From positions 38,055 to 102,054 of the forward strand of contig JANQMA010000050.1 of the NCBI GenBank assembly GCA_028280285.1: DNA of 64,000 nucleotides, in the 5' to 3' direction. The DNA comes from Candidatus Omnitrophota bacterium. GTDB lineage: Bacteria; Omnitrophota; Gorgyraeia; Zapsychrales; Zapsychraceae. The notes beneath the pieces were generated by a model that was not told where the DNA came from, made no database searches, and worked only from the letters and a program-made list of their open reading frames with translations. Positions 6,948-63,831 of this stretch are shown one piece after another. Made by a program: the position numbers and the translations under genes. Positions within the stretch are counted from its first letter, which is position 1. Each line of letters starts with the position of its first letter.

Positions 6948-7017
6948 ACTATAAACACTAAACAGTTAACAGATTTGGCTAAGTTTGTTTACTGTTTAAA
7001 GTTTATTGTTTATATAG
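6948..7017. repeat. Heptad-periodic palindromic intergenic element, AT-rich variant (AAACAGT / ACTGTTT arms)
   Basis: aaactat aaacact aaacagt taacag ... tttgttt actgttt aaagttt attgttt: 7-nt units followed by their reverse complements. Same architecture as 32896..32968. Confidence 0.6.
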
Positions 7018-7037
7018 TCACTAAATTTTAGTTCCCC

Positions 7038-7066
7038 TTGTCAACCAAAACCAACTCTGCTACACT
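7038..7066 (+). promoter_or_regulatory. Sigma70-like promoter TTGTCA-N17-TACACT, 6 nt upstream of the ATG (leaderless or near-leaderless mRNA)
   Basis: ttgtca 7038-7043, 17-nt spacer, tacact 7061-7066; ATG at 7073 with no room for a Shine-Dalgarno. Confidence 0.4.
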
Positions 7067-7072
7067 GACCCC

Positions 7073-7825
7073 ATGAAATACAAAAGCCTTATCTTTACCC
7101 TATTTTTACTCCTTTCAACTACAGCTTCCGCCGGGATTATCGAAATCGAACGCGCCTTCATGGAGCAGGATTATCCGCGGGCCGAGGTATTGGCCGAAGA
7201 AGGCCTTAAGCGGCACAAGGGTGGTGATGTAAGTCTTTTTCAGTATTATCTGGGCTTAAGCCACATCCGTTTAGGTAAATATGGCCTGGCTGCATCGGCT
7301 TTGAAAGACTTAGTTAATGATCAAACCATTCCGACCGATCTGCGTGATAAAGCACACCTGGCACTGATCGATGCCTATTATCTAGCCGGCAAATATGATC
7401 GGGCTGCCGTTCTCGCCGATCAGTTTAAGACAGCGAGTTATAATTCTGATTATTTGAGCCTGCTTTATTTAAAGTCGGCACGTATTAAGTTTAAACAGGC
7501 CGCGTGGACTGATGCGAGGCTCAAACTGCGTACGATCATTAATCAATATCCGGAAAGCTTTGATGTCTATCTGGCGGACCAATTTTTACAAGAAAAGATG
7601 TTCTTCTCGGTTCAGGTCGGCTCTTTTCGCGATCGTGCCCGGGCTAAGGATTTGGTATCACAATTAAAAGCAGAAGGCAAAACCGCCTATATTTTTGAAG
7701 TGAAAGATTATTCGGGACGAAAATTTTATCGTGTGCGTGTCGGTCAGGTGTCATTTCTCGATCAGGCCAAAAACCTGCAGGAAAAATTGGCTAAGCAGGG
7801 GTATCCAACAAGAATCTACCCTTAG
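7073..7825 (+). CDS. Secreted TPR-like plus C-terminal SPOR (peptidoglycan-binding) domain protein
   Basis: Signal peptide MKYKSLIFTLFLLLSTTASAG. The C-terminal ~75 aa (FSVQVGSF...YRVRVGQ...) matches the SPOR fold consensus. Confidence 0.6.
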   Translation: MKYKSLIFTLFLLLSTTASAGIIEIERAFMEQDYPRAEVLAEEGLKRHKGGDVSLFQYYLGLSHIRLGKYGLAASALKDLVNDQTIPTDLRDKAHLALIDAYYLAGKYDRAAVLADQFKTASYNSDYLSLLYLKSARIKFKQAAWTDARLKLRTIINQYPESFDVYLADQFLQEKMFFSVQVGSFRDRARAKDLVSQLKAEGKTAYIFEVKDYSGRKFYRVRVGQVSFLDQAKNLQEKLAKQGYPTRIYP

Positions 7826-7899: not shown

Positions 7900-8796
7900 A
7901 TGTCTACTTCTCTTATTATATTTATTACCGGTCCCACGGCTGTTGGTAAATCGGATGTTGCGCTTAATGTCGCCAGGAAGCTAGATGGTGAAATCATCGC
8001 CTGCGACTCAATGCAGGTGTATCGTGAAATTAATGTGGCCAGCAACAAACCTTCGCCTGAAGAACGGAAACAAACTTCTTATCACATGCTTGATGTGGCC
8101 TCTGTTTACGATGAGTTTGATGTGAATCAGTACGCGAAGCTGGCGATTGCGTGCGTTAAAGATATTATAAGTCGCGGCAAGCAGCCGATTGTCTGTGGAG
8201 GCACAGGCCTTTATATGGAAGCGCTTATTGACGGAGTGTTTGAAGGGCCGAAGGCCGACTGGAATTTAAGAGAAAAATTGGAACAAGAGTCTCCGGAACA
8301 ACTGCATGCGCGTCTTGAAGGGATTGACCCTGATGCAGCGGCTAAAATTCATCCCAATGATTTAAGGCGAATCATTCGCGCGCTCGAAGTGTTTGAATTA
8401 ACAGGCAAACCGATATCGGTTTGGCAGAAAGATCGTACAGGGCTCGCGGATAAATATGCGATTAAAGGTTTCGTTTTAACGCGCGGCCGGGACGCGCTTT
8501 ATGCCACGATCAACACGCGTGTCGATCAAATGATTAATCAAGGATTGATCGACGAGGTGAGCGCGCTTGATTTGGCACACATCAGTAAAACTGCACGGCA
8601 ACTGATCGGCATTAAAGAAACGCTTCAATATTTAAATAATGAAATTGACCGAGACAGGCTCATCGAGATAATCAAACAAAATTCGCGCCATTATGCCAAG
8701 AGACAATTAACTTGGTTTAGGAAAGATGAGCGTTTGCAGTGGATTGATCTTGGCCTAAGCGACCCGTTAAAGGAAATATTAGATAAGAGGTTTTAG
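7900..8796 (+). CDS. miaA: tRNA dimethylallyltransferase
   Basis: P-loop GPTAVGKS; CDSMQVYREINVASNKPS as in the MiaA family; typical length. Confidence 0.9.
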   Translation: MSTSLIIFITGPTAVGKSDVALNVARKLDGEIIACDSMQVYREINVASNKPSPEERKQTSYHMLDVASVYDEFDVNQYAKLAIACVKDIISRGKQPIVCGGTGLYMEALIDGVFEGPKADWNLREKLEQESPEQLHARLEGIDPDAAAKIHPNDLRRIIRALEVFELTGKPISVWQKDRTGLADKYAIKGFVLTRGRDALYATINTRVDQMINQGLIDEVSALDLAHISKTARQLIGIKETLQYLNNEIDRDRLIEIIKQNSRHYAKRQLTWFRKDERLQWIDLGLSDPLKEILDKRF

Positions 8797-8853
8797 GGGT
8801 TAGGTTTTGGGTTTTAGGGCGCCAACACCCAACACCTTAAACCTAACACCTCA
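8797..8853. repeat. Heptad palindromic element, copy 2, inverted orientation relative to 7826..7892
   Basis: The reverse complement shares 24/24 and 21/21 nt blocks with copy 1 and differs only in the central 12 nt. Confidence 0.7.
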
Positions 8854-8860
8854 TATTGTT

Positions 8861-10144
8861 ATGAGCAAGACACATACTCTCCCAACAACCTTACCCCGTG
8901 AAAAAGTATTTATCGTCGTCATTCATTTTAAAAATGACCGCAGTCCGTGGGGCACCGATGAGCTTCTCTATGAAATGCAGGAGCTGGTTAAAGCCTGCGA
9001 GGCTGAAGTGATTGGTCATGCCGTTTGTTCACTCGCCGATATTAATCCCAAATATTTTATCGGGGAAGGGAAGCTCGATGAGATTATGCGCGCGGCCGGT
9101 GCTTTGGGCACTGAAACGATTGTTTTTAGTGAAGATTTAAAGGGCTCCCAACAACGTAATTTAGAAGAGAAGATTGATATTAAGACCATTGACCGCACGC
9201 AGCTTATTCTGGATATTTTTGCTAAGCGCGCAACAAGCCGTGAAGGTAAGATGCAAGTTGAGCTTGCGCAACTTGAATATTTACTGCCGCGGCTTGTCGG
9301 GCGCGGGATCGAGCTTTCCCGCCAGGGTGCCGGGATCGGAACGCTTGGTCCCGGGGAAACCAAGCTTGAGGCCGACCGTCGGCGTATTTCCGACAGGATC
9401 GCCAAGCTTAAACGCGCGTTGATTGATGTCGAGAAAAAACGTGCCTTAACGCGCAAACGCCGCAAGGATAAAGGGGTTCCGGTGGTCTCTTTAGTGGGTT
9501 ACACCAATGCCGGTAAATCCACTTTACTTAACACATTGACCGATGCCGATGCATTGACCCGCGACGGCTTGTTTACCACATTGGATTCACTTTCACGTCA
9601 GCTGACACTGACTAATAATCAAAAAATGATTTTATCCGACACGGTTGGATTTATGCATGCCCTGCCGCATCATTTGATCGAATCGTTTAAGGCTACTTTA
9701 GAAGAGCTTCAAGAAGCAGATGTGCTCATGCATGTGGTCGATGTGTCGCGGTCGAATTTCAAAGACAGGATGGATGCGGTTCACGAGGTGCTCGAAGATC
9801 TCGACGTTGCATGGAAAAAAGTTTTATATGTCTTTAACAAAATTGATCAAGTTGAGGATACGGATTGGCTTGATCAACTTAAAGATAATTATGAACACTG
9901 TGCTTTTATATCGGCTAAACAAAATATCAATTTGGACGAACTACAGACAGCGCTTATAACCATGCTGTCTTCTCTATATATGTATGTGGAACTTGAAATT
10001 CCGATGGCCCGTATGGACTTGATTAATGTCCTGCATGAACAGGGCAAAGTAAGCCATATTACCTATGGGGAGAATACAATAGAAGTGGAGGCTTCGATTC
10101 CGGTTCAGGTTTCCAATGTTTTTAAACCTTTTTTGAATAAATAG
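8861..10144 (+). CDS. hflX: GTPase HflX
   Basis: GYTNAGKSTLLNTLT (G1) and DTVGFMHALPHHLIESFKATLEE (G3 plus the HflX signature). The track start at 8807 translates the repeat element; I prefer the ATG at 8861 (MSKTHTL). Confidence 0.85.
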   Translation: MSKTHTLPTTLPREKVFIVVIHFKNDRSPWGTDELLYEMQELVKACEAEVIGHAVCSLADINPKYFIGEGKLDEIMRAAGALGTETIVFSEDLKGSQQRNLEEKIDIKTIDRTQLILDIFAKRATSREGKMQVELAQLEYLLPRLVGRGIELSRQGAGIGTLGPGETKLEADRRRISDRIAKLKRALIDVEKKRALTRKRRKDKGVPVVSLVGYTNAGKSTLLNTLTDADALTRDGLFTTLDSLSRQLTLTNNQKMILSDTVGFMHALPHHLIESFKATLEELQEADVLMHVVDVSRSNFKDRMDAVHEVLEDLDVAWKKVLYVFNKIDQVEDTDWLDQLKDNYEHCAFISAKQNINLDELQTALITMLSSLYMYVELEIPMARMDLINVLHEQGKVSHITYGENTIEVEASIPVQVSNVFKPFLNK

Positions 10145-19412: not shown

Positions 19413-20516
19413 ATGGCACAAATTACACTTAAGAATGTTTCTAAAATTTACCGCGGCAATGATTGTGCAGTTGATAATATTGATTTGTCTGTCGAGGATA
19501 AAGAGTTTATGGTCCTTGTCGGTCCTTCCGGTTGCGGTAAGTCGACGACTTTACGTATGATTGCCGGTTTAGAAGATATTTCTAAGGGAAAGGCTTTTAT
19601 CGGGGACAGATTGGTTAATGATGTTCCGGCTAAAGACCGTGATATCGCGATGGTCTTTCAAAATTATGCCCTTTATCCACATATGACTGTATATGAAAAT
19701 ATGTCGTTCGGTCTTAAATTGCGTAAGTATCCCAAGGATGAGATTTTAAAACGTGTTAATGAGGCGGCTGAGATTTTAGGTATTAAACATCTTCTCGAAA
19801 GGCGTCCACGCCAATTATCCGGGGGAGAAAGACAGCGCGTTGCTTTAGGCCGTGCGATCGTGCGCAAACCTCAGGTGTTTTTATTCGATGAGCCTTTAAG
19901 TAATTTGGATGCTAAGTTACGTGTGCAAATGCGCACCGAAATCCATAAGCTGCGCACGCGTTTGCAAACAACGTTTGTTTATGTAACCCATGATCAAACC
20001 GAAGCGTTGACTTTGGGCGACCGCATTGTCGTTATGCGTGGCGGAAAAATTCAGCAGTGTGCTGATCCGATGACGATTTATGATAAACCGGCTAATAAGT
20101 TTGTCGCCAGCTTTATCGGTTCACCACCAATTAATTTAATGGATGGTAAAATCATCAAGCGTGATAAAAAATATTACTTTGATGAAGGTAAGTTTCAAGT
20201 TAGACTTGTAGAAGAGATGTATAAAGACATCGAGCCTTATGAAGGCAAAGAGGTTACCTTCGGTATTCGTGCCGAGGATGTTTATGATAAATTATTTGTT
20301 TCTGAAGCGTCACCGGATAATACCATCCGTGCTGTCTGTGAGGTTGTGGAGCCTTTAGGATCTGAAGTTTATTTGTATTTGAATACAGGCAAAAATACTT
20401 TTATCGCACGTGTTGGTGCACATAACCGTCCTGATGTGAATCGGGAAATGGATCTTGTATTTGATATGAGTAAGGTGCACTTCTTTGACCGAGAAACAGA
20501 AAACACAATTGTCTAA
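19413..20516 (+). CDS. Sugar ABC transporter ATP-binding protein (MalK/UgpC/MsmX type), orphan
   Basis: Walker A GPSGCGKST, LSGGERQRVALGRA, and a C-terminal TOBE-like regulatory domain. No permease or binding-protein gene adjacent. Confidence 0.8.
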   Translation: MAQITLKNVSKIYRGNDCAVDNIDLSVEDKEFMVLVGPSGCGKSTTLRMIAGLEDISKGKAFIGDRLVNDVPAKDRDIAMVFQNYALYPHMTVYENMSFGLKLRKYPKDEILKRVNEAAEILGIKHLLERRPRQLSGGERQRVALGRAIVRKPQVFLFDEPLSNLDAKLRVQMRTEIHKLRTRLQTTFVYVTHDQTEALTLGDRIVVMRGGKIQQCADPMTIYDKPANKFVASFIGSPPINLMDGKIIKRDKKYYFDEGKFQVRLVEEMYKDIEPYEGKEVTFGIRAEDVYDKLFVSEASPDNTIRAVCEVVEPLGSEVYLYLNTGKNTFIARVGAHNRPDVNREMDLVFDMSKVHFFDRETENTIV

Positions 20517-45903: not shown

Positions 45904-46722
45904 CTATTTTAGTTTTTTTACATCCTTATTGCTCAGTAATGATTTCATTTGAGTGATGGCTAACTGATTCAATTGTTGAAGTCGCTCTTCTTGTTCCACT
46001 TCCTGACCAATCAGCATGGCGTTAATGCTTTCTAAATTAGTCATGACAACCAATTGCTCCAGAGCGGCATGATCTCTAATATTTCCTTTTTTATCTGGAT
46101 TTTCTTTGCGCCACTCTTGAGCGGTTTTCCCGAATAGAGCTGCATTCAGTAAATCTGCTTCATTAGCATAAATGAAATTTATTCTTTCTTTTGATATTTT
46201 AGGAGGTATTAAATTCTCTTTAATAGCATCGGTATGAATATGGTAATTAATTTTAGCTAAAGTTCTTTGCAAATCCCATTCAAGCTTTTTGGTTTTACTT
46301 TCTTGTTCTTTTAATCGTTGAAATTCCTTAACCAGGTATATTTTAAATTCCGCGCTAATCCACATGCCAAATTCAAAGGCAATGTCTTTATGGGCATATG
46401 TGCCGCCATATCGACCTGCCTGAGCATGTAGACCGATTGCTTTGGTCTTTTCGACCCATTCTTTGACGCTTATTTTATAATTGTTAAGCCCTGCCTGACT
46501 TTTAATTATGGCGAATCCGCCATAATTAAAATCTGGATTATGTATCTTTTCCCAAATCCCGAGATATTCGACAGTATTTCTATTTCTCAGCCAATCGGAA
46601 ATAAAAAAATTTCCATCTTTTGCCTTTATCATATCTGTCAGCGAGATAAAGTCTTGATTATTTTTTGTGAAAAGGTGGATTTTGGATCCCTTAACCTCAA
46701 TAATTTGATTTTCATTTTTCAT
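45904..46722 (-). CDS. KilA-N domain protein (phage-associated DNA-binding)
   Basis: N-terminus IIEVKGSKIHLFTKNNQDFISLTDMIKAKDG...WLRNRNT resembles KilA-N/APSES. Confidence 0.55.
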   Translation of the reverse strand: MKNENQIIEVKGSKIHLFTKNNQDFISLTDMIKAKDGNFFISDWLRNRNTVEYLGIWEKIHNPDFNYGGFAIIKSQAGLNNYKISVKEWVEKTKAIGLHAQAGRYGGTYAHKDIAFEFGMWISAEFKIYLVKEFQRLKEQESKTKKLEWDLQRTLAKINYHIHTDAIKENLIPPKISKERINFIYANEADLLNAALFGKTAQEWRKENPDKKGNIRDHAALEQLVVMTNLESINAMLIGQEVEQEERLQQLNQLAITQMKSLLSNKDVKKLK

Positions 46723-46754
46723 ATGTAAATTTTCTATTTTTGCAAAAAATTTGG

Positions 46755-47138
46755 CTATTCTTCTAACTTTCCCAACAACTCACTAAAAGCAGGGTAGTAG
46801 AGGTCGAGGATATGGACATGGATTTGTTTGATGGCTTCCTGACTGTAGATGTGGACGGTTTTGTTGCGGTCATCGATCATCTGTAAGAAAAGATTTTCAT
46901 CTTCAATGATTCCATCGTTAAAAGCTTCTTTAAAGACGTCTTTGGGATATCTTAGGTCTTTGCCTTTTTCCTTATAATAGAGCTTTAATGTTTTCCAGCA
47001 CAGCTCGTAGGTAAACTCGAACCGCTTGATTGCGCTGTCGCGTAAGATATCGGTCAAAGGCTCCTGCTCAATGACTTCTTTGAGCCGGTCGTAGGCCGCT
47101 TGCCATTTTTCATACGATATTTCGAATTCATTTTTCAT
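46755..47138 (-). CDS. HEPN-domain nucleotidyltransferase substrate-binding protein (HI0074 family), putative toxin/antitoxin partner
   Basis: HI0074-like fold signature FEFTYELCWKTLKLY...NKTVHIY. Confidence 0.65.
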   Translation of the reverse strand: MKNEFEISYEKWQAAYDRLKEVIEQEPLTDILRDSAIKRFEFTYELCWKTLKLYYKEKGKDLRYPKDVFKEAFNDGIIEDENLFLQMIDDRNKTVHIYSQEAIKQIHVHILDLYYPAFSELLGKLEE

Positions 47139-47424
47139 AAATTACCTTCCCCTGGCTAAGGACTAGTTTACGAAAATCCTCTTCGACATCATCTAAATAA
47201 ATAATATCCATTTGATAAAGGCCGATCACGTTTTCCAGATCGTCTTCTAGGTTTTTTTGAATGTCAAAATGTGGCTTTGTGCCGGTAACGGCAATATCAA
47301 AATCAGAGCCTGTGCGGTGCGTGTCTTTACTGCGGGAGCCGAAGAGATAAACGGTTTGTGGATCTATATGTTCTTTTAAGATAGCGATGGTGTGATTTAA
47401 GATTTCTTGCTCACGTTCAGTCAT
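47128..47424 (-). CDS. Minimal nucleotidyltransferase (MNT), partner of the HEPN protein
   Basis: LFGSRSKDTHRTGSDFDIAV (GS...DxD); overlaps the HEPN gene by 11 nt. Start taken at MTEREQEI; the track start translates the operator palindrome. Confidence 0.65.
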   Translation of the reverse strand: MTEREQEILNHTIAILKEHIDPQTVYLFGSRSKDTHRTGSDFDIAVTGTKPHFDIQKNLEDDLENVIGLYQMDIIYLDDVEEDFRKLVLSQGKVIYEK

Positions 47425-47435
47425 TGTAAAATAGT

Positions 47436-47481
47436 TAAGGGACGTATGCCTAATAATAATTATTAGGCGCACGTCCCTTTA
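47436..47481. promoter_or_regulatory. Near-perfect 46-bp palindrome upstream of the MNT/HEPN pair (putative autoregulatory operator; may double as the gap terminator)
   Basis: agggacgtatgcctaataat | aattattaggcgcacgtccct. Confidence 0.5.
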
Positions 47482-47485
47482 TATT

Positions 47486-48523
<1,038 letters not shown>

Positions 48524-48640
48524 CTAAATTGTGATTTAAAAATAATAAGATGTATAAGATAAACCTCAGCGGGAAAAATGTCAAGGTAATTGTGACAGAG
48601 CTTTTGCTCGCTTTTTTCTTATATGTGGATATAATGTCTA

Positions 48641-48673
48641 AATAAAAAAGGGCCAGGATTTTTGTCCTGGCCC
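48641..48673 (-). terminator. Strong intrinsic terminator on the minus strand inside the gap / DUF2237 divergent intergenic region
   Basis: GGGCCAGGA-caaaaa-TCCTGGCCC followed by TTTTTTATTT on the minus strand, ~140 nt upstream of the gap ATG and upstream of a TTGACA-like gap promoter. Confidence 0.5.
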
Positions 48674-48754
48674 GCTTTGAAGCTCTGAGCATTCACTCGC
48701 AGGTAATATAAGTATACATACATATAACTCTTTTTCAAGCAATTTAGAGCCCTG

Positions 48755-49144
48755 ATGACTGACCAAAAAAATGTATTAGGAGAGGTGCTTAAGCCATGCT
48801 GTAAGTTTCCGATGACCGGATTTGTCCGCGACGGCTATTGCCGTCTTCATCCGCAAGATGCGGGTGAGCACACGGTTTGCATCGAAGTGACCGAAGAATT
48901 CCTCGCCTTTTCCAAAGCAGCCGGCAATGATCTTTCCACCGCCATGCCGGAATATGATTTTCCCGGCCTTATTGCCGGTGACCGCTGGTGTTTATGTGCC
49001 TTACGCTGGGTCGAGGCCTATAATGCCGGGGCCGCTCCCAAGGTTGTTCTATCGGCGACCCACGAATCCCTTCTTCAATATGTCCCTATGGAAACCCTCA
49101 ACAACTTTGCCGTTGATGAACAAGAGGGTTTGAACAAGCTTTAA
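48755..49144 (+). CDS. DUF2237 family protein
   Basis: NVLGE.L.PCC..PMTGF.RDGYC...D.G.HTVC..VT.EFL.FSK..GNDL...FPGL..GDRWCLCA.RW pattern. Confidence 0.55.
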   Translation: MTDQKNVLGEVLKPCCKFPMTGFVRDGYCRLHPQDAGEHTVCIEVTEEFLAFSKAAGNDLSTAMPEYDFPGLIAGDRWCLCALRWVEAYNAGAAPKVVLSATHESLLQYVPMETLNNFAVDEQEGLNKL

Positions 49145-49251
49145 AATAATTAAGTAATGTGTCCCCTTAATTCATGTTGATTATTTTTCCATATCGTGTA
49201 TGATAGGGGCACTGTCAAGCACGGTTGTAAATCGTTATAACTCCTTACTTT

Positions 49252-51126
49252 ATGTTTATTTTACGGATATCTTTCTTTTCTCTGATTTTTCTGTTGATTG
49301 GCGAAAATCTGGCGTATGCCCAAGAAGATGAGCCTGTTGTTGTTTCTGAATATGAGACCGTCATTGTATCGGCTAAACGCATTGCCTCATTGAAAAGGAA
49401 CCTTGCGGAAAATACGATTGTCTTTACGGCAAGCGACATTGAGCAATTACCCGCCCGGGATTTAAGTGAATTATTGACCTATATGCCCGGAATCGACAGC
49501 CAGCTCAATGGTCAATTCGGTCAATCCACGTCATTATCCATTAATGGATCTTCGGCCCGGCAAGTTTTACTCATGGTCGATGGCATTCCCTTTAATACAC
49601 AGCTTTCTGGTCAGGCCAGCCCAACACAAATTCCCCTTGAACATATCGAGCGGGTCGAACTCATTAAAGGCGCCTCATCAAGTGCCTGGGGCTCAGGCCT
49701 TGGGGGTGTAGTGAATGTCATCACCAAAGATGTTGGTGATACCAAAGTACCCCGGGGAACGTATACCACATCCTACGCGGAATTCGCCACAACAAAAAAC
49801 AGTTTAAGTTTGTCAGGAGCATTGAAGGAATTTGGTTACTTTCTTTCGGGCAGTTATTTTAGAACGAATGGCATTTTAGATGTATCAGATGTTGAAGAAA
49901 AAAAGTTTTTTGGAAAATTAAAATATGATTTAAACGATCAAGCCGCGCTTACAGGATCTTTCGGGTATAGCGGGGCGGATGTATTTTATGGTGTTTCACC
50001 GACCGGAACATTGAGCCATCAGCCTTATAACACAAGGTATGGCAAGTTTAAATATGATTTTAACAATGACAATTTCCGGTTTGATATCGCTTATAAATAT
50101 AATGATCAGACTTTTACCACCAATACACTAAACCCTACAACAAAGGCTGTGACGTTTGCCACGATTAATTCAAATAAGTATCATGGGTTAAGCCTAAATG
50201 GAAGCACTGTGTTGTTTGATGATCATGTGCTTGTTTTCGGGTCTGATTTTGATTGGCATATATTAAAATCAAATAATTTTTTATCCTCATCAAAAAGCAT
50301 CAGCATGCAGGCACCGTATGTAAACTACACTCTTCCGTGGAATAATTTTGATTTTATCGGCGGGCTGAGGCATGACCACAATCAACAGTTTGGTTCACAA
50401 ACCAGTCCCAGTTTAGGTGTTGTGTATGATTTTAAGGATACCCGTGATTCAGTTGTGCGTGGAAAAATTTCAAGGGCATTTAATGCACCGCCGCTTTTGT
50501 GGATTTATAATCAAGATACAGCTTTTAAAATTAACCCTAATCCTGATTTAAAAGCAGAAAAAGGTATTTTGTATGAGCTTGGATTTGATACAAAGCTTAC
50601 ATCTGCGTTGGATTTTAAATTAAGCCTTTATCGAACAGATGTTAAGGATGCTATTGCACGGGTCGTAGACTCTTCCACATTTTTTTCAACTCAAGAAAAC
50701 TTTGAAAAATTCCGGCGCCAAGGCGGGCAGCTTCTGCTCGATTATAAAATTACCGATGAGATCACATTTTATGGAAGCGGTGCGTTTAATGATGTTGAGA
50801 ACCGGGCAACGGGTGAAACAGTAAGGGATCAGGGCATTGCCCGGCAGCGCTACACATTCGGTTTACGCTATGGCGATAAAAAAGGATGGCGTGCGCATCT
50901 ATCCGGCTATTATAACCGCTGGTCCTCTTCACCGTCGCTTGAGCCGAATGACCGTAAACCTATTTTTAATTTGCGGATCACAAAAGAATTTAAAAATGTT
51001 CAAGATAATATAGATGTAGAGGCATTTCTTTCCATCCATAATCTTACCAATCGCCAATACTGGTCAAGCAAAACCTTTCCTCTGGCCGAAAAATATATTG
51101 AGGGCGGGGTGTCATTGAGGTGGTAA
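49252..51126 (+). CDS. TonB-dependent outer-membrane receptor
   Basis: Signal peptide, TonB box/plug (ETVIVSAKR...), beta-barrel ending in aromatic W. Confidence 0.8.
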   Translation: MFILRISFFSLIFLLIGENLAYAQEDEPVVVSEYETVIVSAKRIASLKRNLAENTIVFTASDIEQLPARDLSELLTYMPGIDSQLNGQFGQSTSLSINGSSARQVLLMVDGIPFNTQLSGQASPTQIPLEHIERVELIKGASSSAWGSGLGGVVNVITKDVGDTKVPRGTYTTSYAEFATTKNSLSLSGALKEFGYFLSGSYFRTNGILDVSDVEEKKFFGKLKYDLNDQAALTGSFGYSGADVFYGVSPTGTLSHQPYNTRYGKFKYDFNNDNFRFDIAYKYNDQTFTTNTLNPTTKAVTFATINSNKYHGLSLNGSTVLFDDHVLVFGSDFDWHILKSNNFLSSSKSISMQAPYVNYTLPWNNFDFIGGLRHDHNQQFGSQTSPSLGVVYDFKDTRDSVVRGKISRAFNAPPLLWIYNQDTAFKINPNPDLKAEKGILYELGFDTKLTSALDFKLSLYRTDVKDAIARVVDSSTFFSTQENFEKFRRQGGQLLLDYKITDEITFYGSGAFNDVENRATGETVRDQGIARQRYTFGLRYGDKKGWRAHLSGYYNRWSSSPSLEPNDRKPIFNLRITKEFKNVQDNIDVEAFLSIHNLTNRQYWSSKTFPLAEKYIEGGVSLRW

Positions 51127-51236
51127 CCGTAAATGATAAAATGGGTGAAAAATGTCAGTTTTAGGATCCATAATGTCATTTAAATTAGTTTAATGCTGGT
51201 TTAAAGTGCGCTCTCGCTAGTTAATCATTCCTACTT

Positions 51237-52913
51237 ATGATGGTTTTTATCCGAACGCTTCTCATTTTATTTATTATGACCATGGAAATCCTCTTACCGC
51301 CAGAGCTTGTTGCACAGCCCAGTACTTCGGCGCAAAATGTCAGTTCACAGAAACCATCCATAAATCCCCGGCAAGAGAGCAGGCCTGTTTATGGAGGGAC
51401 ATTACGCTGGGGTGTTGCGACAAAGCCGACGATTATTAATCCGATCCTTACACAAACAGGCGTTTCTGCCACCATTGCACAGCTGATATCAGATCCATTA
51501 GTAAGAATTGACCACAGAGGTAATCTTGTTCCAGGGGTGGCGAAGTCATGGGGTATTTCCGAAGATGGCCTTGTCTATACCCTTCATTTAAGGCCGGGTG
51601 TTTTGTTTCATGATGGGGTTGAATTAACAGCCGAAGACGTTGTCTTTACCTATAATCAAACGATTGATCCTAAAAATAACTCTCCTTTTCGATCTCATTT
51701 TGTCTTAGTGAAATCCTTTGAAGCTATAGACCGTTACACGTTTAGGATTACATTAAAAGAGCTTTTCCCTAATCTTCTTGGGAAATTATTTTTAGAAATT
51801 ATACCTAAACATATTTTAAAAAATGAAGATTTACATAATACTGATTTTAATTATAACCCAATCGGGACCGGACCTTTCCGTTTTGTCTCCTGGGACCAAG
51901 AGTCGCACAATATTAAATTGGAAACGAATCCTGATTATTTTGAGGGCAGGCCTTATCTCGATGGCATTGATATAAAGTTGTATGACGACAATGAGCGGGT
52001 TTGGATCGGGCTCATGCAAAAAGAAATTGATTTGGCTCAATTTATCAGCCGGGAGAACTTTCTTCATATTAAAAATGATGATGCGTTTAAAAACTATAAA
52101 TTTTCTTTCGGGATGTATTATGCCATGCGTTATAACCTCAAAGATTCCATATGGCGTGATAAAGAATTGCGCAAGGCGGTCGCATATGCGATTAATAAAA
52201 AAGATATTATGAAAAGACTGCCTAAGTTTGATGGGGCTGAAAGCACAGGGCCTTTTCACACATCTTCGGAAGGGTATGATCATGCGATTAAACCTTTTGC
52301 CTATAATCCGGTCAAGGCCAAGCAGATATTGATGCATCGCGGGTGGAAGGCTTTGAGCCAGGATGTCTATGGTGGGGAAAACACGATACGGACCAAACAT
52401 GGGCAAGAGTTGGAGTTGAAAGTACTGGTTAATACAACTAATGACATTTACAAAAATATTATTGCCATGATGCGCCAGCAATTATCAGAGATCGGGATAA
52501 AGTTAATTGTCTTGCCCTATTATGACGAGAAGGAATTGACAGAGGAGTATCTTAATGAGCATCAACCGCAGGCATGGCTGAGGATTTTTGTGGGGCATGG
52601 ACTTGATAAATTTGATAATTATGATGCGGCCATTAATTGGTATTCATTATCTGATCGAGAAGGAGAATGGTGGAATTATAAAAATGAAGAAGTTGACGCT
52701 CTTTTTGAATTATCAAGAAGGACTCAAGACAAGATAGAAAGAGTTACGATTTATAAAAGAATCCATCAAATTGTCTATGAAGATCAGCCGGCTTGTTTTT
52801 TATTCTTTCCTGAATTTTATTTTGCCATCAATGCGAATTTTAAAAATACCGACGATTATTTTTCGATGGGCATGTCCACATGGATGATCAAGGATTGGTA
52901 TTACAGGCCTTAG
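51237..52913 (+). CDS. ABC transporter substrate-binding protein, family 5 (peptide/oligopeptide/nickel type)
   Basis: Signal/TM N-terminus; GGTLRWGV...DPLVR...LVPGVAKSW as in SBP_bac_5. No permease or ATPase genes adjacent. Confidence 0.75.
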   Translation: MMVFIRTLLILFIMTMEILLPPELVAQPSTSAQNVSSQKPSINPRQESRPVYGGTLRWGVATKPTIINPILTQTGVSATIAQLISDPLVRIDHRGNLVPGVAKSWGISEDGLVYTLHLRPGVLFHDGVELTAEDVVFTYNQTIDPKNNSPFRSHFVLVKSFEAIDRYTFRITLKELFPNLLGKLFLEIIPKHILKNEDLHNTDFNYNPIGTGPFRFVSWDQESHNIKLETNPDYFEGRPYLDGIDIKLYDDNERVWIGLMQKEIDLAQFISRENFLHIKNDDAFKNYKFSFGMYYAMRYNLKDSIWRDKELRKAVAYAINKKDIMKRLPKFDGAESTGPFHTSSEGYDHAIKPFAYNPVKAKQILMHRGWKALSQDVYGGENTIRTKHGQELELKVLVNTTNDIYKNIIAMMRQQLSEIGIKLIVLPYYDEKELTEEYLNEHQPQAWLRIFVGHGLDKFDNYDAAINWYSLSDREGEWWNYKNEEVDALFELSRRTQDKIERVTIYKRIHQIVYEDQPACFLFFPEFYFAINANFKNTDDYFSMGMSTWMIKDWYYRP

Positions 52914-52950
52914 CCTTTAACCGTTTTTAATCTTGAAAGGAGGTGATAGA

Positions 52951-53064
52951 GTGGAAATTATCCAACAAGGGACCGAAGATATTACAGAAATGGATTCGCT
53001 TTCATGTTGTTGGCCGCCAGGGACTATGAACTTTCACTTTGGAGCGCCTGAGGAAATGGAATAA
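52951..53064 (+). CDS. Small acidic peptide (37 aa), candidate RiPP precursor or signalling peptide
   Basis: GAAAGGAGGTGATAGA-GTG: perfect SD 7 nt from the GTG start. Encodes (M)EIIQQGTEDITEMDSLSCCWPPGTMNFHFGAPEEME. Sits 137 nt upstream of an rSAM-SPASM gene. Absent from the track only because it is under 60 aa. Confidence 0.55.
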   Translation: MEIIQQGTEDITEMDSLSCCWPPGTMNFHFGAPEEME

Positions 53065-53201
53065 ACCCGGTAAAACAAGGTCGTATTGGCATATAGCAGA
53101 CAGGTATTGATGCACCGCTTAACATTTGTACTTTAAATTAAGAAGAGCAAGACAGCAGATTCATCATATAGCCAATACGGCCTTGTAGATAGGATAAAGA
53201 T

Positions 53202-54611
53202 ATGAAAATTTCAAGTCATACGATTATTGTTGAGGATTATCCATCTAGAGGCGAACATCTGGTTTATAGCACACGCACACAGTTTCTCGGTAAAATTGAC
53301 GAGCGCTTAAGAGATGTCTTAAAAAATTTAGGATCTGAAAATTACTTTCTCGATAGTGAAGATAAAAATAATCTGGCCCAACTATATCGAAGAGGAGTCC
53401 TGGTTCGGGACAAGGAAGAAGAACAGCAAAAACTTAAAGAACATCTGAGGCAAATTAAGCATGGGTATAGCCGGTCTAAATTGGTTGTTACTATTTTAAC
53501 CACCTATGCCTGTAATTTTAAATGCACCTATTGTTTTGAAGAAAGCTCACGGGAAAACATTAAGCTCAGTTTTGAAACACAAGAGCATGTGATCAGCTGG
53601 CTTAAGGGTCAGATGAAACAGTTTGGTTATCAGAGTTTAAATATTAATTATTACGGTGGTGAGCCGCTTCTCAATCAACCGGCGATCGATAACATTTCCT
53701 CTGTTATGAAAACCTGGTGTGAAGAGCGACAGATCGGTTTTGCTATGTCCATTCAAACAAACGGCTATCTGTTAACACCGGAAATTGTTGAAAGGTATAA
53801 AAAGTTAAATTTAATCTCTATCCGTATCAGTGTTGACGGTGTTGGAGAAGATCATGATAAAAACCGTCCTCTGCGTGGTGGTGGGGGAACCTTTGAAAGG
53901 ATTATTCAAAATATCTGCGACTGTGTTGATTTGATCTATATTGGGATATCGATCGGTTTTGAAGGTGGTGATGTGAAACCAATTGAAAGGCTTTTAAATC
54001 ACTTTGATGATTTAGGGATATTGCACAAGTTGGGGCGCATCATTTATTCACCTATTAATCCGACATTAGGCGGCAAAGGCCAGCCGCAGGCGATACGCAG
54101 TTCTGATTGCATGTGTAATTCAGAAGATGCGGTTTTTTCGCGTTCGGTTAAACGGATTAATGAACTGTTGGATCAAAAGGGTATTCCTGAAAAAACCAGC
54201 GGGATGTCGACATCTGTGTGTCCACTGACACGGGAAAACGGTGGCGTGACCATTGATCAAGAGGGGCGTTTATATAAGTGTAATTCATTGCTAGGCCATC
54301 CGGAGTTTGCGGTGGGTGATGTCCGCCAGGATAAGTTTAATGAAACAGGCAATGAGTTTCGGGATCTAGATGTGTGGAAACAGTGCCCGACCGATTGTAC
54401 CTATCTTCCCATGTGCAGCGGTGGCTGCCGTTTGATGTCTTTTGTCGGTGGACACAAAAACTTTAGAGTGCCGTCTTGTAAAAAGGTGTATATGAATGAA
54501 ATGGCCCCTGAATTTATCAAAAGAGACTATGACCGGCTGGTTGAAAATAGCCGTAAACAAATGAAAGGAGAAAGCAGGCCTCAACTGGTGAAATCCGCCA
54601 GTATAAAATAA
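53202..54611 (+). CDS. Radical SAM / SPASM-domain peptide-modifying enzyme with an N-terminal RRE-like extension
   Basis: ~95-aa N-terminal extension (HTIIVEDYPSRGEHLVYSTRTQFLGKIDERLRDVLKNL) resembling PqqD-type RiPP recognition elements. CNFKCTYC rSAM cluster. C-terminal SPASM region with 7 or more Cys (CPLT...CNSLLG...CPTDC...CSGGCR). Confidence 0.75.
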   Translation: MKISSHTIIVEDYPSRGEHLVYSTRTQFLGKIDERLRDVLKNLGSENYFLDSEDKNNLAQLYRRGVLVRDKEEEQQKLKEHLRQIKHGYSRSKLVVTILTTYACNFKCTYCFEESSRENIKLSFETQEHVISWLKGQMKQFGYQSLNINYYGGEPLLNQPAIDNISSVMKTWCEERQIGFAMSIQTNGYLLTPEIVERYKKLNLISIRISVDGVGEDHDKNRPLRGGGGTFERIIQNICDCVDLIYIGISIGFEGGDVKPIERLLNHFDDLGILHKLGRIIYSPINPTLGGKGQPQAIRSSDCMCNSEDAVFSRSVKRINELLDQKGIPEKTSGMSTSVCPLTRENGGVTIDQEGRLYKCNSLLGHPEFAVGDVRQDKFNETGNEFRDLDVWKQCPTDCTYLPMCSGGCRLMSFVGGHKNFRVPSCKKVYMNEMAPEFIKRDYDRLVENSRKQMKGESRPQLVKSASIK

Positions 54612-54644
54612 TCTTTTGAACAAAAAAGAGTTCTGTAGTAGGCT

Positions 54645-56480
54645 ATGTATTCAATGAAGCAACTTGCCCAACTTCTTAGACGATGTATACCGAAAAAAAT
54701 ATGGCTACAGGCATTTCTGGTATTGGTGTGCGTTATTATTATTCCTTTGATTGTGCTCGGCGCCCTGCTTGTTAATACCAGTCAGAAGGCTATTAAAACA
54801 TCTGTTTTCCGTGACCACAAAGAGGTGGCTGTTCATGCCACGGACAAGGTCGAAGAGCATATCAAAGGCGCACGGCAGTCCATCTTGGTGACAGCTTCTA
54901 TCCTCGGAACACTCCATGCCGATTCATGGCGGCAAGAAACAGCGATTGTTGAACTATCTCTGCGCAATCCCGCTTTTCAGCGTATTGCATCGGTTGACCT
55001 CAATGGAGAGGAAATTGCCAGCTCTGAGCTTGGCAGTGCGCCTCAAAATAGAGGTAATGAAGAGGCGTTTCAACAGGCCATAGCCGGTGCATCGTATATT
55101 TCTCACATTAAAATTTCTGAAGATCAAATACCTTATCTGACCCTGGCTGAGCCGATTAAAGAGTTTGGACAAGTTAAGGGTGTTTTAATGAGCGAACTTA
55201 ATGTAAGAAGTGTTTGGGATATTATTGATAATATTCATTTCGGCGAAACAGGCCGAGCATTTCTGATTGATCACCATGGCCGGATTATAGCCCATCCGGA
55301 TAAAAAACGTGTCCTTCAAAACGAACATATTCCTTACCCAAGTATTTTAGAAAGTATATTATTAGGCCAAGCAGGAAATATGGAAAAAATAAGGGAGGAT
55401 GGAGAGCGTTTGTTGATTTCTTATGCACCGGTTGTTAATCCCGATTGGGGCCTTGTTATTACTCAACCTGAGCGCGAAGCCTATGCTTTTTTAACGGTGA
55501 TGAAGCTTCAATCATGGGGGACTATTTTATTAAGTGCTTGTGTTGCTATGATTTTGAGTTTACTGCTTGCCAGATACATGAGTCGTAACATCGAAAATAT
55601 TGTCTCAGGCACGCAGCGTGTGGCCAAAGGAGATTTTTCACATCATTTTCCGATTAAACAGCGAAATGAAATCGGCAAGCTTCTTTTTTCATTTAATCGT
55701 ATGACATCGAAGCTGCGTAAGGCACGGGATGTGGAAAAATTATCTGTTATCGGTAAGGCGGCGGCAGCCGTCGCGCATGAACTTAAAAATTCACTTGTGC
55801 TTATCACAACGTTTGTTGAGCTTTTGCCCGAACGTCATCGTGATAAAAAATTTATTAAAGAATTTTCCGAGACGATACCGAAAGAGCTTGACAGTTGGAA
55901 TACATCACTTCGCAACATGATGGTTTTTTCACGGAGTTATTCCAGTTTCCCAACTTATGATACAAATGTTAATGACATTATTAAAGAAATAAGTCTTCTA
56001 GCAAAAATGAAGGCGCGGCAATTGGATATTCATTTTAATGAAAGTCTTGAACAAAATATTTCTTTGATCAATGGCAATAAAGATAAACTTAAACAAGTTT
56101 TGTTAAATCTTGTTACGAATGCGCTGGAAGCAACCCCGGGTGGTGGTCAAATAGATGTCGTGACACGCAATATTGTATCGGATAAATCAAAAAATGGTTC
56201 GGCTGATCGCTATGTTGAGGTTTCTGTATCCAATACGGTGAGTGATGGCTGTCCGGATGATTTAGATAAAATTTTTAATCCGTTTCATACGACCAAAGCA
56301 GGTGGTCTCGGTTTAGGCCTTTCGATCAGTAAAGAAATTATGGACCGTCACAATGGCAGCATTGATGTTTCATTTAATGAAGAGAATCAGTCGCTGTGTT
56401 TTGTTGTTAAGTTACCTGTTACATCTGAAATGGCATCGCGTGTGATTCCTCAAATACCATCAGTTAAATCACATCTTTGA
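54645..56480 (+). CDS. Sensor histidine kinase with periplasmic Cache-like domain, HAMP, HisKA and HATPase
   Basis: TM1, ~280-aa periplasmic domain, TM2, HAMP, H-box AHELKN, N/G boxes NLVTNALEAT and GGLGLGLSI. Confidence 0.8.
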   Translation: MYSMKQLAQLLRRCIPKKIWLQAFLVLVCVIIIPLIVLGALLVNTSQKAIKTSVFRDHKEVAVHATDKVEEHIKGARQSILVTASILGTLHADSWRQETAIVELSLRNPAFQRIASVDLNGEEIASSELGSAPQNRGNEEAFQQAIAGASYISHIKISEDQIPYLTLAEPIKEFGQVKGVLMSELNVRSVWDIIDNIHFGETGRAFLIDHHGRIIAHPDKKRVLQNEHIPYPSILESILLGQAGNMEKIREDGERLLISYAPVVNPDWGLVITQPEREAYAFLTVMKLQSWGTILLSACVAMILSLLLARYMSRNIENIVSGTQRVAKGDFSHHFPIKQRNEIGKLLFSFNRMTSKLRKARDVEKLSVIGKAAAAVAHELKNSLVLITTFVELLPERHRDKKFIKEFSETIPKELDSWNTSLRNMMVFSRSYSSFPTYDTNVNDIIKEISLLAKMKARQLDIHFNESLEQNISLINGNKDKLKQVLLNLVTNALEATPGGGQIDVVTRNIVSDKSKNGSADRYVEVSVSNTVSDGCPDDLDKIFNPFHTTKAGGLGLGLSISKEIMDRHNGSIDVSFNEENQSLCFVVKLPVTSEMASRVIPQIPSVKSHL

Positions 56481-56672: not shown

Positions 56673-57398
56673 ATGTTATCTGAAAAAATTGTAGTTATTG
56701 ACGATGATTCCAGGATCGTCAAAAGTTTGAAGATGGCGTTGATTGGCTATGAGATCAAAGATTTTTCTGATGCCAAAACCGCGCTCAATTATTTGTGTAA
56801 ACCAAACATGATTCATTTGGTTATGCTTGATATTATGATGCCGGGGATTGATGGGCTTAAAGCGCTTCAAGAAATCAAAAAAATTAATAAAGATATCGCG
56901 GTTATTATGATGACCGCTTATAGCACAAAGGATGTGGCGATCGAAGCCTTGCGTCTTAAGGCGGATGAGTTTATTGAGAAGCCTTTTCAGGTTAATGATG
57001 TCAAATCGAAGATCCAGAGGATTTTGCATGAAAAATTGCAAAACGGCCAGGTTAAAAGCAGTAATGGCGGATATGTTGACCGCATTAAGACTTTTGTTAA
57101 ACGCAATCAGAAGAATGCGACTTTGGATTTTATAGGCGAAGAAATGTCGCTCAGTCCTAAATATATTAGTCGCATGTTTAGTAAAAAGAACGGGGTTAGT
57201 TTTCGTGACTTTAAACTACAAACCAAAATTGAGAAAGCCAAAGAATTGCTTAAAAAATCTCATTTAAATATTACAGAGATTGCCTTTGAGTTGGGGTATC
57301 AAAACCCTGAATCATTTATGCGTCTGTTTAAACGTTTAACTAATTTAACACCCTCGCAATATAGAAAGAAGTTCGGTAAAAGAAAAATACGCTGTTAA
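56673..57398 (+). CDS. Response regulator, REC plus AraC-type HTH
   Basis: VIDDDS...LDIMMPGIDG...MMTAYS...EKPF receiver; C-terminal AraC HTH (ITEIAFELGYQNPESFMRLFKR). Confidence 0.8.
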   Translation: MLSEKIVVIDDDSRIVKSLKMALIGYEIKDFSDAKTALNYLCKPNMIHLVMLDIMMPGIDGLKALQEIKKINKDIAVIMMTAYSTKDVAIEALRLKADEFIEKPFQVNDVKSKIQRILHEKLQNGQVKSSNGGYVDRIKTFVKRNQKNATLDFIGEEMSLSPKYISRMFSKKNGVSFRDFKLQTKIEKAKELLKKSHLNITEIAFELGYQNPESFMRLFKRLTNLTPSQYRKKFGKRKIRC

Positions 57399-63098: not shown

Positions 63099-63831
63099 CT
63101 AATTGTCCAGCTCCCCATGGAGAAATTTCTGAACAATGCTATTATCCGAGTTTTTAATTTTCTGCGGTGTCCCTGATTCAACAATAGATCCGTTATGCAG
63201 CATAGCTACCTGATCGACGATACTGAAAATATTAGGTATTTCATGGCTGACAATAATGGCTGTCAGATTATTTTTTTTCTGTAGTGATCTGATTAATGCG
63301 TGAATCGTGTTAGTTGTCATCGGATCAAGGCCTGTTGTCGGCTCATCAAAAAGAATTATTTCCGGATGCGTAATCAAACAGCGTGCCAGGGCAACGCGTT
63401 TTTTCATGCCGCCGCTGATCTGTGATGGAAATTTATTACGGTCTTTACGTAAGCCCACATCATCCAATGCTTTTAATACTTTTTTGCGGATGGCATAGGG
63501 TTTAAGATTTGTTTTTTCTTTCACGGGAAAGGCGACATTTTCATAGACATTAAGAGAATCAAACAAAGCACTGCCTTGAAACACAATGCCTAAACGTTCC
63601 TTGATGCCTTTCAAATCGCTACCTTTAAGATGATGGATGTTTAAGTTATTGATTAAAACTTGTCCACCGTCGGGCCTAAGCAGTCCGATAATGTGTTTAA
63701 GCAAAACAGATTTGCCCTTACCGCTGGATCCGATTAGAGCGCAGATTTCGCCTGTTTTGACCGTTAGGTTAACGCCTTTTAAAATCTTTTGGTCGTCAAA
63801 ATTTTTAACAAGGTTTTTTATTTCTATCATA
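63099..63831 (-). CDS. mlaF: MlaF ABC transporter ATP-binding protein
   Basis: GSSGKGKSVLLK Walker A and LSGGMKKRVALAR signature. The track N-terminus (MVHEVRSTSYEP) translates the repeat element; start taken at MIEIKNL. Confidence 0.8.

Follow-up and report, generated by a model that had tools for sequence, protein, structure and literature searches.

A conserved Cys-Cys peptide gene of an Omnitrophota bacterium as a probable geopeptide-like RiPP precursor, linked to outer-membrane uptake and two-component sensor genes

The 64,000-nt stretch of DNA analysed here, called the window, comes from a Candidatus Omnitrophota bacterium (assembly GCA_028280285.1, contig JANQMA010000050.1, positions 38,055–102,054 of the forward strand) and contains at 52951–53064 a short open reading frame (ORF) for a peptide with two adjacent cysteines. 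Its conservation and its gene context indicate that this ORF is very probably the translated precursor of a geopeptide-like ribosomally synthesized and post-translationally modified peptide (RiPP). The gene lies directly upstream of a radical SAM (rSAM)/SPASM enzyme gene and inside a conserved cassette for an outer-membrane transporter dependent on TonB (TBDT), a periplasmic substrate-binding protein (SBP) and a two-component system. The genes of the cassette would allow a full loop in which the peptide is produced, released, recaptured and sensed, and we hold the chances for and against this loop to be evenly balanced. Precursor and loop taken together form the best explanation that we could find, and as a blend of the two it is rated as likely.

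Results

Coordinates and translation signals of the peptide gene

The ORF had been described in an initial annotation, made from the sequence alone, as GTG, 37 sense codons and TAA at a distance of 37 nt from the stop of the SBP gene, and a fresh reading of the sequence confirmed these coordinates, with the SBP ORF ending at 52913. The features of the gene are as follows.

52951–53064, + strand: precursor peptide gene (GTG 52951–52953, 37 sense codons, TAA 53062–53064)
52938–52943, + strand: Shine-Dalgarno (SD) sequence AGGAGG, part of a 9-nt full match AAGGAGGTG at 52937–52945, with the 7-nt spacer tgataga before the GTG

The region 52930–53064 reads gaaAGGAGGtgatagaGTG, followed by 36 more sense codons and TAA, and the product read from it is the 37-residue peptide VEIIQQGTEDITEMDSLSCCWPPGTMNFHFGAPEEME. 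Three parts can be told apart in the peptide: it begins with the leader MEIIQQGTEDITEMDSLS, continues with an invariant CC and the residues WPPGT, and ends in an acidic tail, MNFHFGAPEEME, that varies. The ribosome-binding site (RBS) had been claimed to be exceptionally strong, and this holds: the precursor SD matches the complement of the anti-SD over 9 nt and is the strongest in the window, where none of the ORFs of at least 120 aa exceeds 6 nt. The hexamer AGGAGG was observed nine times on both strands of the window against ~21 sites expected from base composition, and apparently only the site at 52938 precedes an ORF start, as judged by inspection of the downstream sequence with the other sites unmapped to genes. 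The TTG at 52933, with which the automatic ORF list began this frame, was rejected as a start; it overlaps the SD, and the homologues all begin at the GTG position.

There are 163 ORFs of at least 30 aa in 20 kb, so a length of 37 codons alone is within chance. The ORF stands beyond chance because it is conserved in place and shows a coding pattern of substitutions, and not because of its length. It is uncalled in the source record, the identical public contig (L101; L numbers denote the loci that we compared), where the SBP gene and the rSAM gene are consecutive calls, and the exact window peptide was not found in a collection of 5.8 billion proteins. The homologues are called in some assemblies and skipped in others. 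For example, one contig is present in two assemblies, and the peptide is called in one (L082) and uncalled in the other (L083). In the same pair, the SBP gene at 8111–9745 is a single gene of 544 aa by the calls of one assembly and is broken into pieces of 287 and 255 aa by those of the other. This mismatch points to an inconsistency of assembly or gene calling rather than to biology.

Conservation of the peptide and selection on its codons

Homologues of the peptide gene were found at 21 DNA loci and as some 100 related peptides, the majority from Omnitrophota metagenome-assembled genomes (MAGs). A metagenome scan with a peptide profile had added 16 loci. The start codon lies exactly 18 codons ahead of the Cys-Cys pair in 21/21 CCWPPG-type loci; it is GTG in the window only and ATG elsewhere, and nearly all these loci carry the SD GAAAGGAGG ahead of it. 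Disruption of the frame in relatives, which the initial annotation had named as evidence that would speak against the gene, was not seen in these loci.

Selection was estimated from pooled pairwise Nei-Gojobori counts of the proportions of nonsynonymous (pN) and synonymous (pS) differences, a codon-level test of the kind that had been proposed earlier, and the outcome favoured a coding sequence. Codons 2–25 gave a pS of 0.72, a pN of 0.25 and a pN/pS of 0.35. By part, the ratio went from 0.04 in CCWPPGT to 0.46 in the leader and 0.76 in the tail; with the frame shifted by +1 and +2, it was 1.29 and 1.56, respectively. The column entropy at the codon positions 1, 2 and 3 was 0.74, 0.36 and 1.45. 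The leader codons 2–13 had a pN/pS of 0.47 versus 0.84 in the in-frame upstream control codons. These values bear on the shorter product that had been suggested to start at an internal ATG (Met14), and this candidate was rejected: residue 14 is Met in 13 of the 21 loci and Leu, Ile or Val in the rest, its codons in several loci are incapable of starting translation, and codons 2–13 ahead of it are under purifying selection.

A search of the 5.8-billion-protein collection with a peptide profile that had the 43-aa TTG-extended ORF as its first row recovered 59 peptides, and a search of 1.84 billion representatives at 50% identity gave 51 matches at E ≤ 1e-3, of which about 47 are true family members. 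The family consensus is MEIIxxG[TS]DDxxxMAALxCCWPPG[TS]Exxxx-PE(P)E with a variable acidic tail, and the core varies among the members as CC[WFYM]P[PAV][GLMY]. In the peptide alignments, the CC is invariant and G7 nearly so, and the two adjacent cysteines are the only universally invariant residues. The architecture of a leader followed by CCWPPG...NFHF, as first described, thus stands for the conserved CCWPPG and falls for NFHF, which lies in the variable tail and is not conserved. A tblastn-style search for the peptide near homologous rSAM genes, also proposed at the outset, found the peptide directly upstream of the rSAM gene in all the close relatives and, among the distant relatives examined, a CC peptide in all but L007. 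At 4194–5400 of the metagenome contig L097, the place behind the peptide gene belongs not to the rSAM gene but to a gene of 361 aa on the minus strand. With its tail of GIEQ repeats, the latter resembles an inserted gene of a mobile element, and the cassette appears disrupted there.

In a rival reading, the ORF would be there by chance, or the leader of the rSAM mRNA would contain it as a regulatory upstream ORF that is indifferent to its own sequence. It has only 37 codons, sizes of this kind are common by chance, and the source annotation did not call it. Against this stand the conservation of amino acids with saturated synonymous sites and a frame-specific constraint, the position of the start and the SD conserved in 21 loci that are not near-identical copies of each other (pS about 0.72), the significant matches of the profile to many independently called peptides, and the match to the NCBIfam geopeptide model given below. 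We consider a nonfunctional ORF barely credible.

The adjoining radical SAM/SPASM maturase

The gene that follows the peptide was characterized by NCBIfam searches, cysteine motifs, an AlphaFold2 (AF2) model and fold matches.

53202–54611, + strand: radical SAM/SPASM maturase of 469 aa with an N-terminal domain resembling a RiPP recognition element (RRE)

The enzyme matches PF04055, and the cysteines C104, C108 and C111 of its CxxxCxxC motif are invariant among 38 homologues. In the same set, the SPASM cysteines C340-x14-G355-x4-C360, C395-x3-C399-x5-C405-x3-C409 and C426 are invariant or nearly so; the first two cysteines of the SPASM CxxC block are spaced by x3 where x2 is usual. The AF2 model has a predicted local distance difference test score of 89.3 overall and above 90 over residues 1–90. 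It shows a partial TIM barrel, a SPASM domain and an N-terminal unit with strands at 7–10, 18–23 and 29–33 and helices at 34–41, 52–63 and 71–87. With its three strands and three helices, this unit appears in the model as an RRE-like domain. When solved structures were searched with Foldseek, the best fold match was CteB (5why/5wgg), with 19% identity over 459–469 aligned columns that include the N-terminal domain, followed by TigE, anSME, SuiB and ChlB. CteB, a thioether synthase that contains an RRE and acts on the SCIFF peptide (thermocellin), was the best sequence match among the solved structures as well.

From the gene arrangement and from homology, the rSAM enzyme most likely modifies the adjoining Cys-Cys peptide. 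By analogy, a Cys-derived thioether would be the most probable modification, and it is favoured because CteB is best by both fold and sequence and PapB is related. From the homology of the enzyme, the Cys sulfur may be joined to the C-alpha of an acceptor residue, as in sactipeptides, or to its C-beta/C-gamma, as in ranthipeptides. CteB/CteA, PapB/PapA and the window pair have in common an RRE, an rSAM core and a SPASM domain with two auxiliary clusters, and the modified site is rich in Cys. They differ in the substrate, which has a single CC pair in the window and six Cys or repeated CxxxD motifs in SCIFF and ranthipeptides, and in the surroundings, as the SCIFF and ranthipeptide loci are without the TBDT/SBP/two-component cassette.

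Relation to the geopeptides

The window peptide had one match only in NCBIfam, to TIGR04229 "geopeptide" (20.4 bits, E = 3.2e-4), in which residues 2–21 align with profile positions 2–19 of 22; eight other cassette peptides were without any match even at E ≤ 1. The best NCBIfam model of the rSAM enzyme was TIGR04280 "geopeptide radical SAM maturase" with 237.7 bits, and the next matches were to CefB, TIGR04463, Clo7bot, FlmE/OhkG and PapB; the model of PapB was matched at E = 5e-36 and that of the SCIFF maturase at E = 2e-25. The proposal that the ORF encodes a RiPP precursor is thus supported by the weak match of the peptide to TIGR04229 and by TIGR04280 as the best family of the adjoining enzyme.

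The enzymes of L009 (Nitrospiraceae, 531 bits) and L014 (Desulfobacteraceae, 560 bits) pass the TIGR04280 cutoff, and both have CC peptides upstream; the window enzyme is only about 30% identical to such members. At E < 1e-20, the 469-aa window enzyme has 627 homologues, and those that bear a name come from Candidatus Omnitrophota/Omnitrophica MAGs. The L014 enzyme gave more than 2000 homologues at E ≤ 1e-60 with the best 8000 candidates scored, and among the 120 matches listed, several carry the NCBI name "geopeptide radical SAM maturase". The rSAM proteins of L102 (P0256) and L103 (P0295) are homologues of the L014 enzyme, and P0256 as well as the L104 enzyme (P0289) bears the same NCBI name. 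The peptides of these three geopeptide-clade loci, IAVLDEGIKMDDIVDSFGICCSGPLTPFR, MKEERIIIIDEGIDEVNPDGWQACCWGPLFAFRG (L103) and MKEEGKDVEVLDTGCDTEKFWNRPCCWGPSGSVVFWW, align with the window peptide in both leader and core. When contigs were scanned with the rSAM alignment, about 10 true relatives were found among the 80 loci listed and the rest had generic rSAM motifs; a contig scan with the single rSAM protein gave no match.

Two of these loci have further peculiarities. At 6225–7741 of L103, nine identical tandem copies of the precursor MKEERIIIIDEGIDEVNPDGWQACCWGPLFAFRG with a 166-nt period lie between the TBDT and rSAM genes, where the automatic calls are overlapping ORFs of 71 aa with starts set far upstream of the true one. 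In L104, a minus-strand gene at 5295–7076 for a 593-aa protein with a weak Peptidase_C39_2 match adjoins the peptide-rSAM pair in place of the TBDT, SBP and histidine kinase genes; a leader peptidase or an exporter variant is possible.

The sequence relations given above make the window system clearly homologous to the geopeptide system, of which it is a divergent sister clade outside both curated cutoffs. The geopeptide family is defined by comparative genomics and is contained in curated model libraries, and the window clade has an accessory set of its own. Literature searches found no paper on geopeptide, TIGR04229/TIGR04280 or the CCWPPG motif, and on RiPPs in Omnitrophota they found generic surveys of biosynthetic gene clusters.

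The conserved cassette of uptake and sensor genes

The initial annotation had recognized the peptide and its SBP neighbour, but had missed that TBDT, SBP and two-component system form one conserved cassette. The other genes of the cassette in the window are as follows.

49252–51126, + strand: TBDT of 624 aa, type with a Plug domain and a 22-strand barrel (NCBIfam; Pfam Plug, TonB_dep_Rec_b-barrel)
51237–52913, + strand: SBP_bac_5 periplasmic binding protein of the Opp/App/NikA type, 558 aa, with a Sec signal peptide (PF00496)
54645–56480, + strand: sensor histidine kinase with a periplasmic dCache domain of ~240 aa, HAMP and HATPase (Pfam dCache_1, HAMP, HATPase_c)
56673–57398, + strand: response regulator with AraC-type helix-turn-helix output (Response_reg, HTH_18, HTH_AraC), syntenic in L002, L005, L081, L082, L085 and L090
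57412–57801, + strand: single-domain response-regulator receiver, with which the conserved cassette ends, syntenic in L005, L081, L082, L085 and L090

The order is TBDT, SBP_bac_5, peptide, rSAM, (ABC exporter), dCache histidine kinase, AraC-type response regulator and receiver. It is constant in every locus that is long enough, over protein identities from 65% to about 25% and including an Auribacterota MAG. The TBDT, the first gene, has a signal peptide (..AYA/QE) and syntenic orthologues of 41–56% identity in L001, L002, L005, L081, L082, L084–L086, L090 and L093; in the geopeptide loci L009, L014, L102 and L103, a TBDT gene lies directly upstream of the peptide. Wherever the contig of a close relative reaches far enough, the SBP gene is the next one upstream of the peptide. 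Among the NCBIfam models, the SBP matched Opp4A, NikA-like, Opp5A_nikA and the staphylopine binder CntA, with the Opp4A/NikA-like matches all below cutoff, and its closest solved structures were 8efz and the oligopeptide binder AppA (1xoc). The transmembrane segments of the kinase at residues 14–50 and 288–313 flank the dCache domain, and it has syntenic orthologues at 37–53% identity. Topology prediction gave signal peptides for TBDT and SBP, a periplasmic sensor for the kinase and a cytoplasmic location for the rSAM enzyme.

The exporter of the relatives consists of ABC_membrane and ABC_tran domains. The junction of the rSAM and kinase genes is covered in 14 loci, and in 11 of them the exporter gene lies between the two. 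An inner-membrane importer was absent from every cassette, and for the window SBP the cassette has neither a cognate ABC permease nor an ATPase gene. In the geopeptide clade, an SBP of the PF04392 family is encoded beside a HAMP kinase, upstream of the kinase in L009 and as a divergent pair in L014, L102 and L103. This replacement by a non-homologous SBP argues more strongly than anything else for an action of transporter, binding protein and sensor on the peptide product.

At 4367–9081 of L005, tblastn matches the SBP, rSAM and ABC exporter genes each in two or three separate pieces, whereas the peptide ORF is unbroken; either indel errors of a long-read MAG or a decaying cassette would produce this fragmentation. 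Just upstream of the window cassette, between fmt and gap, a trio of minus-strand genes occupies 45904–47472. It consists of a nucleotidyltransferase (47128–47472, Polbeta/NTP_transf_2) and a HEPN-like substrate-binding protein (46755–47138), which resemble a toxin-antitoxin pair, and an adjoining KilA-N domain protein (45904–46722). The start of the window is taken up by a single ORF of 2309 aa (18–6947).

The hairpin behind the peptide gene

The gap between the precursor and rSAM genes is occupied by a structured element.

53075–53186, + strand: long imperfect hairpin (RNA fold), no T-run after it

The hairpin folds with −37.3 kcal/mol (z = −4.1), a value that was equalled in 0/200 shuffles. 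In nearly all the relatives, a strong hairpin of 10–16 bp stands directly past the peptide stop with unrelated sequences, and it is followed by a T-run in L005, L091, L095 and L096; in some of them it has the form of a canonical terminator. The possibility of a repeated element was rejected, the arm sequence being unique in the window. Rfam detected no known RNA or riboswitch in the window at the gathering threshold or in 48500–53300 at E ≤ 1, and therefore there is no cobalamin riboswitch ahead of the BtuB-like transporter. A consensus promoter scan was uninformative. RiPP and bacteriocin operons usually have hairpins behind the precursor stop, which act as partial terminators or stabilizers and so lead to an excess of precursor transcript. 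As judged from its position and fold, the window hairpin is probably a terminator-like, attenuator-like or transcript-stabilizing element, and it speaks, as does the exceptional SD, for a high precursor output.

Discussion

The findings suggest the following mechanism. The leader (MEIIxxGTDD..MAAL) would dock on the RRE-like N-terminal domain of the enzyme, and the rSAM/SPASM enzyme would modify the invariant Cys-Cys core, perhaps with its aromatic-Pro residues, by one or two Cys-derived thioether cross-links if CteB and PapB are a guide. The strong RBS and the post-stop hairpin would provide the precursor in excess over the enzyme. The product, with an expected mass of about 1–2 kDa without and 4.2 kDa with the leader, would then be released, in most relatives through the ABC exporter of the cassette. 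For a core cut before the CC, the calculated mass is 1.1–2.2 kDa, and the usual porin size limit lies below this range. The TBDT would be needed because the product exceeds that limit, and the conserved linkage suggests that the product re-enters the periplasm through it. The SBP would bind the product there, and the dCache kinase may sense either the product or the SBP-ligand complex and signal to the AraC-type regulator. The simplest reading of such a loop would be that a diderm bacterium signals with a diffusible peptide. In its widest form, the proposal is a mode of cell-cell signalling in diderms with an rSAM-cross-linked CC peptide, re-entry through a TBDT, a permease-less SBP and a Cache kinase, of which the geopeptides would be a second version with a non-homologous SBP; we put this forward tentatively and regard it as doubtful.

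Several observations weigh against a geopeptide-like signal in such a loop. The peptide scores under the curated cutoff of TIGR04229 (20.4 versus 30 bits), and the enzyme is below the cutoff of 400 for TIGR04280. The chemistry is drawn from relatives of ~19% identity, and the same fold is used for cyclopropanation (TigE), a Lys-Trp link (SuiB) and Cys oxidation (anSME). The window itself is without an exporter, as are L089 and L093: the rSAM and kinase genes are separated by a gap of 33 nt (54611–54645), and when a displaced exporter was sought across the window, only similarity to ABC ATPase domains was found, at 19449–20066 and 63171–63785 with 28% identity. The cassette has no leader peptidase, and the ABC exporter of the relatives is without a C39 domain. 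No shared regulator-binding motif was seen by eye upstream of 11 TBDT genes. Furthermore, a TBDT and an OppA/AppA-related SBP beside a RiPP precursor make up the layout of the methanobactin operon, in which MbnT (TBDT) and MbnE (OppA/AppA-related) are encoded beside the precursor and the inner-membrane importer is unknown (PMC7558416).

This last likeness favours a metallophore similar to chalkophores or nickelophores, that is, a modified Cys-Cys core that chelates a soft metal extracellularly and is taken up as the metal complex by the TBDT and bound by the SBP, with the two-component system inducing the uptake genes once the loaded compound is in the periplasm. A metallophore would agree with the two adjacent cysteines as the only universally invariant residues, with the association with a TBDT in both clades and with the matches of the SBP to NikA, Opp5A_nikA, CntA and solved nickel-binding proteins, although its best matches are oligopeptide binders. 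A control of this type is established for PfeS/PfeR, which induces uptake genes in response to ferric enterobactin. However, the nearest characterized rSAM/SPASM relatives consume the thiols in thioethers, which would weaken metal binding, and the cassette has no enzyme of the MbnB/MbnC type. No metal-responsive regulator, reductase or inner-membrane importer was found in any cassette, and the PF04392 SBP of the geopeptide clade, encoded beside the kinase, looks like a co-sensor. A metallophore is unlikely in our estimate, though the present data do not tell it apart from a pure signal.

The two other functions that were considered fit the gene content poorly. Many thioether peptides made by rSAM/SPASM enzymes are bacteriocins, and an antimicrobial product resembling sactipeptides or ranthipeptides, with the neighbours serving regulation or immunity, would agree with the ABC exporter that follows the rSAM gene in 11/14 loci and with the multiple precursor copies of L103. 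The exporter is dispensable in the window, L089 and L093, no immunity gene is present, a producer with a TBDT importer and an SBP for its own toxin would harm itself, and the core hardly varies between hosts that are very divergent, where the cores of bacteriocins diversify; we judge a bacteriocin improbable. More improbable still is the precursor of an unsecreted intracellular redox cofactor, as in PqqA/PqqE or MftA/MftC. Its layout would be that of PQQ and mycofactocin, a small peptide beside an RRE-rSAM-SPASM enzyme; the window is without an exporter, and a TonB-dependent PQQ receptor, PqqU, exists, whose model was weakly matched. Most relatives do encode an exporter, no cassette contains a peptidase, a further tailoring enzyme or a cofactor-dependent dehydrogenase, and the remaining genes are those of a periplasmic SBP and a periplasm-sensing kinase.

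A released peptide that is recaptured and sensed is thus the explanation that we prefer. Its meaning begins with a missed gene that is added to the genome, small precursor genes being systematically overlooked still. The gene brings to light a family of "MEII...CCWPPG" peptides with about 50 clusters at 50% identity as a sister to the geopeptides, a family which has a product name at NCBI and on which we found no publication. The call of a precursor is routine once it is seen. The conserved cassette for production, recapture and sensing in uncultured diderm phyla is directly testable, as its linkage to the TBDT, the permease-less SBP and the two-component system provides a hypothesis of function with few components that can be expressed heterologously. 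If true, the signalling loop would be peptide quorum sensing across an outer membrane, to our knowledge undescribed, and widespread in the uncultured ultra-small Omnitrophota. Either outcome would be informative for uncultured phyla, be it a RiPP signal that passes the outer membrane by way of a TBDT or a metallophore made by an rSAM enzyme.

The comparison with known systems shows both shared and distinct traits. The methanobactin operons and the window share a Cys-containing RiPP precursor with a dedicated TBDT and an SBP of the OppA/AppA family, and neither locus has an inner-membrane importer (PMC7558416). They differ in the maturases, which are MbnB (DUF692/MNIO) and MbnC for methanobactin, forming an oxazolone-thioamide from Cys, and an rSAM/SPASM enzyme as the sole maturase in the window. 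They differ as well in the regulation, by a sigma/anti-sigma pair in the former and a two-component system in the latter, and the peptides are unrelated in sequence.

The geopeptides are closer. They share with the window a short peptide whose leader resembles a β-strand (..IIxxG..D/E..) and in which an aromatic residue or Gly-Pro comes after an invariant CC, and its gene is directly upstream of that for a homologous RRE-rSAM-SPASM enzyme. The TBDT, periplasmic SBP and histidine kinase are likewise common to both, a feature of the geopeptide loci that was derived here and not from the model documentation. The cores are CCWGPL (L103), CCWGPS (L104) and CCSGPL (L102) in the geopeptides versus CCWPPG in the window, and the tails are short and hydrophobic or basic in the former and acidic, with a length of 10–14 residues, in the window family. 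The SBP_bac_5 protein of the window and the PF04392 protein of the geopeptide clade are non-homologous, and the dCache kinase and AraC-type regulator of the window have as their counterparts a sigma-54 activator in L009 and hybrid kinases in L102 and L103. An ABC exporter is usual in the window-type cassettes, unlike the geopeptide loci. The hosts are Omnitrophota, Auribacterota and Planctomycetota for the window clade and Desulfobacterota and Nitrospirota for the geopeptides.

Circuits of peptide quorum sensing whose signals are RiPP-like, such as those of the streptide RaS-RiPPs (shp/rgg), of the agr autoinducing peptide (AgrC/AgrA) and of the ranthipeptides that are implicated in clostridial signalling, combine precursor, enzyme, exporter and sensor or regulator in one locus, as do the window-type cassettes. 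The precursor is highly expressed in such peptide quorum-sensing circuits, as is proposed here for the window. These circuits belong to monoderm bacteria, in which the signal reaches its sensor directly, whereas the window cassette adds a TBDT and a periplasmic SBP.

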